From assembly GCA_965655095.1 (NCBI GenBank), contig OZ296649.1, forward strand, positions 133,734,001 through 133,798,000: a stretch of 64,000 nt of DNA, read 5' to 3'. The DNA is from Haplodiscus bocki (taxonomy: Eukaryota). The position numbers were made by a program, and so were the translations under genes. This document shows, in pieces, positions 1 through 39,367 of this stretch (its first letter is position 1; the number at the start of each line of letters is the position of its first letter). Under the pieces are notes generated by a model. It saw only the letters and a program-made list of their open reading frames with translations, did no database searches and was not told where the DNA came from.

Positions 1-336
1 TGTGGAAGGCTTTGGGATTTTTATTTGGCTGATTTTCTTTTGAAGCTGTAGTGGAAGTTGGATTATTCACTAGCTTTTTCTTTTTGCAGTACAGTTAAAA
101 CAAATGATTTGGGGGGTATACTTGCACCTTAAATCGTTTAAAGTTCGTCTTCTAGATAGTCCAACAGTTCTTCTACTTTGTCTTTGAACGTTGATTCTAA
201 CTTCAATGATTTGGAGTGTTTGCCCAAGGTATCATAGAGTCTGTTGACTTCAATTGGGTCAATGTCAATTTCCATATAGTAGGGCTCATTGTGGGGTTCG
301 AAGACTCTCTTTCGAATGAGGGGAGAACATCCAAAT

Positions 337-1620
337 TTACTTTCTGTCGCTAAGGTTTCATGACAAATTCTATATTTGCTTGAACCAATACATTTGTCGA
401 CTTGGTCTCTCGTTACTAGAGAAGTTTCCATCAAGTTTTCCGATACTGCCAGGTATTCTGCTTCCATAGTCCACTTAACTGCCATGTCTTCGTCCCTTTG
501 GGGTTGAGGTAGCACAATTGCTTGGTACACTGTGAATGCTGTTTGTCGTGATGCAAATGGCATTGCCATTGTCATCAAAAGACCATTATCAAGGGTAAAT
601 ACATCCAATAAAGGGTATGATTCCTAATATGCCAAACTTCCTGTTTTGGAATGGCCAAGGTAAGTCAGTCATCGGACTTCTCTTATGAGTCGTCAACCAC
701 TTTCAAGATTTTTCAAAGGATTTCTTAGGTAATAGGGACAAAGGAACGTCTTTTGAAAGTAGAGAGGGAATAGCATTCATAATACTCATCTGGAACGCAA
801 ACAGCTGCTCGATAGGCTTTGACGTTGCAATAGATTAGGGAAAGCCAAGAAGAAACTGTATCCAAATTGAAGTTCATCTGTTGTCTTGTATAAAGTAGTT
901 GATCACAGTTGCGCATGTCGTGGATATTCTCCCGGAATTGTTTCTCGATCTTTTGCAAGTTCTCTTTTTGAATTTCGATAAATTGATTTTGGATTTCGTG
1001 AAGGAGGACTAAATCTTTTGAGACACGGAAAAATTTCTCATCGGTTGTGTTCGCAAGTTGTCGCCAATAGCTATGGTGTATTCTCGATATTTTTCAGCAT
1101 TTGTTCGGGCTTTTTCTTGACATGATCCAAAGATACCCAAGATACCACAAACATCCGATGCACCAAACATGATGCCGGTTCCGAATAATCCTACGGCGCA
1201 TGCTACTGCTAAAGGTACTGCTCTTTTAGACAGTTGTTTTTTCTTGATTTCAGTGACCTTCAAGAAGGAGGCTACTTCGTGTTTTATTTTGTTCAGGTCT
1301 TCGTCGGCGAACGAGATTTGCTTTTTCGTTTCTTTTAGAAGCCAATCTACTTTGAAGTCGTTTTGACTTGTGTTTGTGAAATTAAGATAACATCTATAGG
1401 TCAGCATTCCGGCATTCGCCACATGCTGTAATTCTGTTGCTACTTTGTCTAGGCTTTCCGTTAGTTGGATGTCAACTTTTTGGTAGGGGAGTAAGAATTG
1501 GACATTTACAAATTTTTCTGCCAAAAGTATTTTTGTCCCTTCGTGGGAAAATACTCCTCGCTCAACACTACCTTTGCCATCTGCTACCGCTACTACTAAA
1601 AACAGAAAAAGTAGAGTCAT
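337..1620 (-). pseudogene. env: env-like class I fusion glycoprotein (baculovirus F / paramyxo-F / errantivirus type), 5' ~400 codons, frameshifted and truncated before the TM anchor; representative copy, repeated in every unit
   Basis: Signal peptide MTLLFLFLVVAVADG; N-glycosylation sequon NFT; basic cleavage site KKKQLSKR followed by the hydrophobic Gly/Ala-rich fusion peptide AVPLAVAGAVGLFGTGIMFG; heptad-like region (LHEIQNQF...IHDMRNCDQLL); YLAVS...VDKC...YRICH Cys motif typical of F-type env. The pieces join only across several frameshifts. Confidence 0.8.
1009..1620 (-). CDS. env: 203-aa env N-terminal ORF (signal peptide through fusion peptide), open in this unit
   Basis: ORF track. 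An 8-nt duplication (ggtcAGCATTCCggcattc) near 1399-1418 bridges the frame break found in other units. Confidence 0.45.
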   Translation of the reverse strand: MTLLFLFLVVAVADGKGSVERGVFSHEGTKILLAEKFVNVQFLLPYQKVDIQLTESLDKVATELQHVANAGMLTYRCYLNFTNTSQNDFKVDWLLKETKKQISFADEDLNKIKHEVASFLKVTEIKKKQLSKRAVPLAVACAVGLFGTGIMFGASDVCGILGIFGSCQEKARTNAEKYREYTIAIGDNLRTQPMRNFSVSQKI

Positions 1621-37200: not shown

Positions 37201-39367
37201 TTTTTGAGTTTCGATAAATTTATTTTGATTTCGTGAAGGAGGGCTAAATCTTTTGAGACACGGAAAAATTTCTCATCGGTTGTGTTCGCAAGTTGTCGCC
37301 AATAGCTATGACGTATTCTTGATAGTTTTAGCATTTGTTCTGGCTTTTTCTTGGCATGATCCAAAAATACCATAGATACCACAAACATCCCATGCACCAA
37401 ACATGATGCCGGTTCCGAATATTCCTACAGCGCCTGCTACTGCTAATGGTACTGCTCTTTTAGACAGTTGTTTTACCTTCATTTCAGTGACCTTCAGGAA
37501 GGAGGATACTTCGTGTTTAATTTTGTTCAGGTCTTCGTCGGCGAACGAGATTTGCTTTTTTGTTTCTTCTAGAAGCCAATCTACTTTGAGGTCGTTCTCA
37601 CTTGTGTTTGTGAAATTGAAATAACATCTATAGGTCGGCATTCGCCACATGCTGTAATTCTGTTGCGACTTTGTCTCTTTGGACGTCAACTTTTGACTAG
37701 GGGAGTAAGAAATGGACATCTACAAAATTTTCTGCCAAAAGTATTTTTTGCCTTCGTGGGAAAATACTCCTCGCTCAAGACTACCTTTGTCATCTGCTAC
37801 CGCTGTTATTAAAAACAGAAAAAGTAGAGTCATTGTGGAAGGCTTTGGGATTTTATTTGGCTGATTTTCTTTTGAAGACGTAGTGGAAGTTGGATTAATT
37901 ACTAGCTTTTTCTTTTGGCAGTACAGTTAAAAGACAACTGATTTGAGGGGTATACTTGCACTTTAAGTTCGTTTAAAGTTCGTCTTCTAGATAGTCCAAC
38001 AGTTCTTCTAGTTTGTCTTTGAACGTTGATTCTAACTTCAATGAATTGTGGTGTTTGCCCAGGGTATCATAGAGTCTTTTGAATTCAATTGGGTCACTGT
38101 CAATTTCCATATAGTAAGGCTCATTCTGGGGTTTGAAGACTCTCATTCGAATGAGATGAGAACATATACATTCACTTTTTGTCGCTAAGGTTTCATGAAA
38201 AATTCTATATTTGCTTGAACCAATACATTTGTCGACTTGGTCTCTTGTTACTAGAGAAGTTTCCATCAAGTCTTCCGATACTGCCAAGTATTCTGCTCCC
38301 ACATTCCAATTAACTGCCATGTCTTCCTCCCTTTGGGGTTGAGGTAGCACAATCGCTTGGTACACTGTGATTGCTGTTTGTCGTGATGCAAATGGGATTG
38401 CCATTGTCATCAAAAGACCATTATCAAGGGTAAATACGTCCAATAGTGGGCGTGATTCATAATATGCCAAAGTTCCTGTTTTGGAATGGCCAATGTAAGT
38501 CTGTTATCGGACTTCTCTCATGAGTCGTCAACCACTTTCAAGATTTTTCCAAGGATTTCTTAGGTAATAGGGACAAAGGAACATATTTTGAAAGTAGAGA
38601 GGGATTAGCGTTCATTATACTCATCTGGAACGCAAACAGCTGCTCGATGAGCTTTGACGTTGCAATAGATTAGGGAAAACAAAGAAGAAATTGTATCCAA
38701 AGTGAAGTTCATCTGTTGTCTTGTATAAAGTAGTTGATCACAATTGCGCATGTCGTGGATCTTCTCCCGGAAGTGCTCCTCGATCTTTTGCCAGTTCTCT
38801 TTTTGAGTTTCGATAAATTGATTTTGGATTTCGTGAAGGAGGGCTAAATCTTTTGAGACACGGAAAAATTTCTCAGCAGTTGTGTTCGCAAGTTGTCGCC
38901 AATAGCTATGGCGTATTCTCGATATTTTTAGCATTTGTTCGGGCTTTTTCTTGACATGATCCAAAACTACCCAAGATACCACAATCATCCGAGGCACCAA
39001 ACATGATGCCGGTTCCGAAGAATCCTACGGCGCCTGCTACTGCTAAAGGTACTGCTCTTTTAGACAGTTGTTTTTTCTTGAATACAGTGACCTTCAAGAA
39101 GGAGGATACTTCGTGTTTTATTTTGTTCAGGTCTTCGTCGGCGAACGAGATTTGCTTTTTTGTTTCTTTTAGAAGCCAATCTCCTTTGAAGTCGTTTTCA
39201 CTTGTGTTTGTGAAATTGAAATAACATCTATAGGTCGGCATTCGCCACATGCTGTAATCCTGTTGCTAATTTGCCTAGGCTTTCCGTTAGTTGGGTGTCA
39301 ACTTTTGGGTAGGGGAGTAAGAATTGGACATTTACAAAATTTTCTGCCGAAAGTAATTTTGTCCGTC

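Follow-up and report, generated by a model that had tools for sequence, protein, structure and literature searches.

The question raised by this locus is how a gene of a retrovirus-like element becomes a long tandem array beside the element from which it came, and what such an array retains of its parent. The stretch of DNA under study (hereafter the window) is 64,000 nucleotides long and comes from Haplodiscus bocki (GenBank assembly GCA_965655095.1, contig OZ296649.1, positions 133,734,001 to 133,798,000 of the forward strand); it holds an array of 1.6 kb units derived from an envelope (env) gene, next to a decayed gag-pol of the gypsy type. Our analyses make it quite likely that a single env-bearing Ty3/Gypsy insertion decayed in place, that the env-derived array grew, and that a JmjC gene belongs to the cargo of the element family.

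The tandem array and its env-derived unit

Counts of 20-mers over the window show multi-copy sequence from position 1 to ~39,360 and single-copy sequence past that, with main spacings of 1597-1606 and 4499. The corresponding tandem array (1..39364, minus strand) reaches the left window edge and contains 21 env-length copies (20 with a signal-peptide start and 1 adjoining pol), 2 truncated copies of ~490 bp, 2 longer pieces of the parent and 1 copy cut by the window edge. An anchor marking the start of the unit occurs 23 times, and 20 of the 22 spacings between its occurrences measure 1586-1622, the other 2 being 2890. All of the copies lie on the minus strand, which is also that of gag-pol, and divergence among the units ranges from 0.13 to 8.33% (mean 5.49%). 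With 21 env-length copies placed head-to-tail over at least 39 kb, the array is a macrosatellite in the sense of units longer than 1 kb repeated over tens of kilobases. Tandem Repeats Finder (TRF) reported no repeat, the longest period that it covers being 500. The AT skew lies between -0.06 and -0.23 throughout the array and the element (1-48000) and is gone in the host flank.

One unit taken from anchor to anchor (u01; 36570..38155, minus strand) comprises the tail of a small upstream open reading frame (ORF), an intergenic stretch, and env from the signal peptide to about amino acid (aa) 445 of 725, with no membrane anchor. As read from its sequence, the unit runs from the end of this small frame (ORF-U) through the intergenic stretch into an F-type env, of which it includes the first ~60%, and units are joined at a junction (J1) near 38170. 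At J1 (38165..38177, minus strand) homology to env stops and homology to ORF-U begins, at aa 41 of the related protein P0016, in a single frame, and this arrangement is found before 21 of the 23 anchors. A 176 aa ORF at 37973-38503 is accordingly chimeric: its residues 8-111 resemble env proteins, and from residue ~114 on it resembles separate short proteins (viz. P0030, P0049, and P0056). The in-frame fusion at J1, which ends in EDEL, is probably coincidental; relatives of ORF-U have the same ending, and the breaks of env lie upstream.

A 119 aa piece of the env sequence has 10 relatives among 206 candidates, most of which are 66-79% identical to it in full-coverage matches. Two relatives, P0006 (75% identical to the window piece; 25.1 bits) and the distant P0113 (28.1 bits), exceed the cut-off of 24.1 for the Pfam family Baculo_F (PF12259); these are the 2 above cut-off among the 26 env relatives scanned (28 proteins in all), the window's own pieces giving no match, and a search of PDB sequences with the env profile returned nothing significant. 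Full-length env relatives are 650-780 aa long, and 3 of the 4 scanned have a hydrophobic C-terminal anchor at aa 624-640; an R-x-K/R-R motif is likewise found in 3 of 4. A signal peptide, a furin-type site and a fusion-peptide-like stretch, read from the sequence, are present in the units and in the env relatives, and the env protein of the units is 74-80% identical to that of one relative. The C-terminal membrane anchor is absent from the units, in which the env portion ends at aa ~445-458, and the array unit thus reads as a truncated env pseudogene.

Four breaks in the env frame are common to 21 of 21 copies (in P0003 numbering): a frameshift at 281/282, after RAAV; a frameshift at 313/314 and a stop at 322, both in KSLEK..VVDDS; and a frameshift at 338, before AYYES. 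Further breaks are found only in subsets of the copies. In the 217 codons that lie away from the breaks, variable sites are distributed over the three codon positions as 35/44/44 (p 0.52), and the ratio of nonsynonymous to synonymous differences per site (pN/pS) between units, in 10 chosen pairs, ranges from 0.51 to 2.11 and is centred near 1. Because the four breaks are present in every copy and the copies have diverged neutrally, env was already dead when it was amplified.

These results bear out much of the original prediction, which had described an array of more than 39 kb with 21 or more head-to-tail units of 1.6 kb, their co-orientation with gag-pol, the env lesions shared by every unit at the sites given above, and the death of env prior to its amplification. 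Two of its claims need to be narrowed. The contiguity of the array with gag-pol holds as adjacency, with ~2.5 kb deleted at 39365 and two 2.4 kb pieces interrupting the array; the unit, which had been taken for the env gene, is env-derived and includes the ORF-U tail, with env contributing its first part only.

The units are related to one another in an ordered manner. Units that lie farther apart differ more in sequence (Spearman 0.79, p 0.0002, n=21). Among 163 informative sites, 5.1% of the pairs within 100 bp are incompatible vs. 18.0% overall (p 0.001), and along the length of several mosaic units the nearest neighbour changes. Longer repeats are superimposed on the basic one, viz. a 3.2 kb dimer (u14 and u16 being 0.1% apart, and u15 and u17 0.9% apart) and a 4.5 kb higher-order duplication with 99.1% identity over 2,894 bp, and the two leftmost full units are set apart from the remainder at two indel sites. 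Neighbour similarity, mosaic units and the 3.2 and 4.5 kb repeats together constitute the pattern of concerted evolution, the cause of which, as we infer from the sequences, would be unequal crossing-over and gene conversion between neighbours.

The pol-env interval and a proposed history of the array

Two 2.4 kb pieces that are not units break up the array (24402-26788 and 28901-31287, both on the minus strand), the second of them lying within the 4.5 kb higher-order duplication. The first piece is made up of a segment A' (26472-26779, 308 bp) and a segment B (24390-26471, 2.08 kb). Segment B has no match outside the array within the window, and A' matches a segment A on the parent side (39366-39665) at ~90%, with 8% difference plus gaps. 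An entire ORF-U of 109 codons (24207..24536, minus strand) extends from B into the adjoining unit; P0016 matches it over its full length (76%), aligning over all 107 aa across the B-to-unit border. Relatives of a JmjC protein behave similarly at the other border, where 6 of the 9 queried give a single alignment over A'/B from near their N-terminus; on the parent side they match from 39365 only. Because P0016 spans the B/unit border and the JmjC relatives span the A'/B border, the 2.4 kb pieces read as native sequence of the element, namely the interval that is missing beside pol, and the same alignments indicate that the parent-side copy has lost ~2.5 kb. Two other interpretations were abandoned on this ground, viz. 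that the pieces are foreign insertions and that the units belong to a family other than that of the adjacent gag-pol. The only copies of the lost interval in the window are those within the array, which thereby archives its parent.

The site of the loss is junction J3 (39362..39369, no strand assigned), a ~2.5 kb deletion at which the middle of JmjC is joined to env codon 28 with 4 nt of microhomology. The env remnant on the gag-pol side of the array (u00; 38171..39364, minus strand) begins at reference codon 28; it lacks the first 27 env codons and hence the signal peptide, although the relatives and the other units have one. A further junction, J2 (26780-26788, with its equivalent near 31280), leads from env codon ~60 back to the middle of JmjC and shows ~9 nt of filler and no clean microhomology. 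Within the archived interval, a diverged paralogue of ORF-U (24937-25215, minus strand; 27% to P0016, E 3e-4) is situated upstream of ORF-U, so that the cargo region has a small duplicated gene pair. On the plus strand, an antisense ORF of ~80 codons (25556-25810 and 30067-30309), which has a hydrophobic segment and a tail of basic residues and may encode a small membrane protein, matched no Pfam family of note.

On the gag-pol side, a decayed pol in many ORF pieces (41233..45635, minus strand) encodes protease, reverse transcriptase (RT), RNase H and integrase, placed in this order behind gag according to Pfam, as in Ty3/Gypsy and also in BEL/Pao elements; the best integrase match is Ty3-G Gag-Pol (E 5.5e-6). 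The gag-like ORF of 314 codons (45876..46820, minus strand) matches DUF1759 under the cut-off. A candidate 5' long terminal repeat (LTR; 46854..47042, minus strand) is proposed from its sequence, which has TG..CA ends and AATAAA and is followed by TGG, and it has no partner within the window. Downstream of integrase lies a macrodomain of the TARG1/OARD1-like type (40413..40841, minus strand; E 7e-9, and just E 0.21 for Pfam Macro), and an ORF piece of 87 codons (39970-40233, minus strand) with no Pfam match lies between the macrodomain and JmjC. The most likely parent of the array is this adjacent gag-pol.

The gene order of the element would then be LTR, gag, pol, TARG1-like macrodomain, antisense JmjC, small ORFs, ORF-U and F-type env, and its history can be proposed as a series of steps. 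Env, as seen in the shared lesions, gathered at least four breaks. The 1.6 kb unit would have arisen by an internal tandem duplication (J1), and another duplication, of greater length, may have carried the JmjC-to-env region into the array (J2). Unequal crossing-over and gene conversion would account for the observed pattern of expansion, partial homogenisation, local subfamilies, the 3.2 kb dimer and the recent 4.5 kb repeat. Lastly, a deletion of the microhomology type (J3) would have taken ~2.5 kb from the copy beside pol. The original prediction of a snapshot of the conversion of a transposable element (TE) into a satellite survives in that the unit is env-derived and the adjacent gag-pol is most likely its parent; it had missed the 2.4 kb JmjC pieces and that the parent env is without its first 27 codons, and the route itself is already well described.

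Several points weigh against this history. The window stops short of the array's left end, of the 3' env and of the 3' LTR, so that a single parent insertion is no more than probable; the difference between A and A' (8%) equals that of the most distant units, on just 24 differences; and among the matches listed no short-read contig bridges J1 or J3. The A/A' difference also argues for a double insertion, in which the JmjC-to-env pieces and the units would come from a sister element inserted in or beside the gag-pol copy, the resulting tandem dimer having seeded the array. At 8% plus gaps it exceeds the distance of u00 from its nearest units (3.8-4.7%), and TE tandem dimers are described, in the portion of the source available, as commonly seeding arrays (PMC5932611). 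The 24 differences, however, fall on the codon positions as 5/12/7 and show no synonymous excess (pN/pS 1.15), which, small as the numbers are, fits duplicated dead DNA better than two active sisters; u00 has all four of the breaks found in every unit; and no copy of an LTR or of pol is present within the array. We therefore regard a double insertion as unlikely.

It is highly improbable that the array is an assembly artefact arising from collapsed or duplicated haplotypes or from a misjoin. The data that bear on it consist of short-read contigs, not single reads, from 4 runs of 2 samples in one study, and the window itself may derive from one of these samples. All 4 runs contain the element piece 39494-40578 without any difference, and element and flank pieces in general with 0-2 differences; a second allele in the contigs agrees with A' at 9 of 9 sites. 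A stronger argument is provided by the divergence of 0.1-8.3% among units, in nested subfamilies ordered along the DNA. A joint from 39364 to 37780, which 2 of the 4 runs contain, was not accepted as proving the tandem arrangement, as ordinary env continuity yields the same joint. Summed depth relative to the single-copy flank is ~10-55x for the unit and ~6-30x for gag, values that give no estimate of copy number. The A'-type allele (39441-39492) has a depth of ~1.6, 3.4 and 1.7 in one sample and ~9 in the other (run X4) relative to the element's single-copy contig, which, contig depth not being copy number, is no more than a faint indication that the samples differ in the number of copies of the 4.5 kb block.

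A JmjC gene as probable cargo of the element family

The window holds three copies of the JmjC gene, all of them broken or cut. Two remnants (26108..26778 and 30608..31278) lie antisense to gag-pol-env on the plus strand, over the A'/B border, the first being broken with its C-terminus cut and the other its second copy; on the parent side, a C-terminal half (39365..39868, plus strand) corresponds to aa 110-247 of P0162, to which it is 72% identical. The plus-strand ORF 26255-26758 matches P0162-P0164 as well as two proteins encoded in the window. With P0162 as the query, 14 proteins were obtained; the alignment comprised 13 members of the family. The Pfam family PF02373 is narrowly passed by P0162 (24.4 bits) and P0168 (25.4 bits) at a cut-off of 24, and 11 of the 13 family members match it at E<=0.1. 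The residues H-x-D, K and the distal H, which correspond to the H-x-D...H iron triad and the conserved lysine of JmjC dioxygenases, are all retained in 10 of 13 relatives. The relatives also end in a basic tail, possibly a nuclear signal. Between two subgroups that average 46% identity, the catalytic blocks are 66% and 70% identical and the insert and tail 30%, and this better preservation of the catalytic blocks points to purifying selection in the JmjC family. In the Atlas, JmjC clusters appear at a score of 0.92, and KDM2-like and JMJD4-like names at 0.78 serve as leads only.

These observations lead us to consider it very likely that JmjC is conserved as a gene within an env-bearing gypsy family, where it is most likely a regular cargo gene, broken in the present copy. 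Alternatively, this copy alone may have acquired it, either as a chance passenger or as a host or mobile gene with no connection to the family. Its antisense orientation and the lack of any intact element among those seen are in keeping with a passenger, as is the fact that just 2 of the 10 env matches pair with a JmjC match on a longest contig of the same size (P0001/P0164 at 639,298 and P0004/P0167 at 549,480), pairs which in themselves suggest co-location in other element copies. Against it stand 13 further clusters of relatives, some containing as many as 10 members, in which the gene is a single open frame of 163-298 aa sharing 46-84% identity with P0162, a picture typical of a dispersed family. 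The closest of these relatives share 66-73% identity with the copy in the window, and the env relatives are similarly distant (66-79%, full-coverage matches). A passenger origin is thus improbable. No relatives of the JmjC protein were found in viral contigs or in JGI metagenome contigs.

The view of JmjC as a family gene has its own counterevidence. The window pieces alone fall under the Pfam cut-off (E 0.03-0.08), and 8 of the 10 env matches have no JmjC contig of the same size, the matches that exist indicating co-location and not adjacency, so that the gene order proposed for the family rests on the window together with the same-sized contigs of relatives. A PDB sequence search with the JmjC profile gave nothing significant. 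The AlphaFold model of P0168 is poor, with a predicted local distance difference test (pLDDT) score of 39, and a fold search with it gave a best Z of 2.7, JMJD6 (Z 2.3, root-mean-square deviation (rmsd) 5.7, 164 aligned) and PHF2 (Z 2.2, rmsd 5.2, 154 aligned) being at noise level. In the active relatives the protein is probably a functioning dioxygenase dependent on Fe(II) and 2-oxoglutarate.

Function of the array and comparison with known systems

Beside the element, ~1.5 kb from its 5' end, is a host gene of the Rap-GAP family, present in pieces (48526..51487, minus strand). Dispersed, very high-copy repeats at 47790-48244 and 50520-50974 have summed contig depths in the thousands to tens of thousands vs. 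~20-60 for single-copy flank. Farther out are an inverted repeat at 51524-51776 (98 nt arms, 94% complementary), a hairpin-type inverted repeat at 57274-58080 (arms of 355 nt at 94% complementarity, separated by a 40 nt spacer, plus outer arms of 31 nt) that resembles a miniature inverted-repeat transposable element (MITE) or a foldback element, and three diverged direct repeats spaced 436-443 bp at 58152-59155, possibly an old short tandem array. A tRNA search found none, an Rfam scan of 24000-64000 gave no match, and there are no RNA data among the sequencing runs listed for the region.

The array most likely drifts neutrally. The observed/expected CpG ratios of the array and gag-pol (0.78 and 0.77, respectively) compare with 0.86 for the flank, and transitions and transversions among the units number 85/78; neither measure suggests a methylation footprint in the array. 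Selection might instead keep the array for one of the two roles suggested in the original prediction, that of a small-RNA source directed at relatives with an env or that of a seed of heterochromatin, either of which would be compatible with the origin favoured above. Targets for such RNAs exist, since env and gag relatives are multi-copy, with a summed contig depth in the same runs that greatly exceeds that of single-copy flank; the 74-80% protein identity of the units to the env of one relative, noted above, is also in favour. The single orientation of the units, with no inverted copy in the array to form a hairpin, speaks against this role, as do the lack of CpG depletion and of a transition excess and the presence of a host gene ~1.5 kb away, all of which would be compatible with production of PIWI-interacting RNAs (piRNAs). 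Maintenance by selection is therefore improbable, and neutral drift is preferred.

Segments of LTR, gag and pol are described as sources of satellites (PMC12628747). As far as the available parts of the cited accounts go, the closest parallel is provided by the Ogre-derived satellites of Lathyrus (PMC7004042), in which, as here, an array arose from an internal part of an LTR element, is linked to the element and shows higher-order repeats. The Ogre satellites begin from short pre-existing repeats of the 3' untranslated region, whereas decayed coding sequence, namely the ORF tail and env, makes up the 1.6 kb monomer here, and the present array, in contrast to them, keeps a segment that its parent lost (PMC7004042). 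Tandem dimers and arrays of Drosophila TEs (PMC5932611) likewise show head-to-tail amplification to tens of copies; those arrays consist of whole elements that arose via double insertion, whereas an internal fragment without LTR was amplified here (PMC5932611). The formation of a satellite from retrotransposon parts is thus a known route, which is extended by the present case.

Among the enzymes carried by mobile elements, TET/JBP enzymes reportedly occur in fungal DNA transposons. Cytosine methyltransferases are carried by Ty3/Gypsy and DIRS retrotransposons (PMC6338049), and GDSL and DEDDy ORF3 proteins by bdelloid retrotransposons (PMC5408684); these are, as here, cases of enzyme capture, some of the enzymes acting on chromatin marks, and the portions of the two papers compared name no JmjC. 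Gypsy elements with F-type env are widespread in animals (PMC13524379). The metazoan errantiviruses (PMC13524379) and the Tor elements of Oikopleura (PMC4402516) have the same order of gag-pol-env and of protease, RT, RNase H and integrase, and their env, like that of the full-length relatives found here, has a signal peptide, a furin-type site, a fusion-peptide-like stretch and a C-terminal anchor. What sets the present element apart from them, as they are described in the parts available (PMC13524379, PMC4402516), is ~3.5 kb of extra cargo (macrodomain, antisense JmjC and small ORFs) between integrase and env. The terms "JmjC", "macro" and "demethylase" have 0 occurrences in the main text of PMC13524379, and a motif search of its 7 supplementary files gave 0 matches. 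No published report of an LTR retrotransposon bearing JmjC was found in a literature search that had subscription papers and bioRxiv supplements outside its coverage.

Stand-alone catalytic JmjC genes in a genomic parasite are described for the endogenised giant viruses of Amoebidium, where a role against chromatin silencing was proposed (available part of PMC11244446). Those genes are KDM4-like, multi-exon and part of giant-virus insertions, whereas the present gene is a single ORF in an LTR retrotransposon (PMC11244446). By analogy with them (PMC11244446), one may guess that JmjC serves here to remove silencing marks of the host. The wider proposal, that the env-bearing gypsy family uses its antisense JmjC and its TARG1-like macrodomain against host marks (histone methylation and ADP-ribosylation), and that the satellite of a dead copy archived cargo that was later lost, is possible and in our view rather doubtful.

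The array represents a clean case of an ordered history, comprising the death of a gene, two duplications, local homogenisation, higher-order repeats and a deletion in the parent, the last of which is readable only through the piece that the array retained. If JmjC is indeed a conserved gene of this env-bearing gypsy family, a retrovirus-like element would carry its own chromatin-type enzyme and, as intact natural relatives exist, the family would offer a direct test of transposon counter-silencing.

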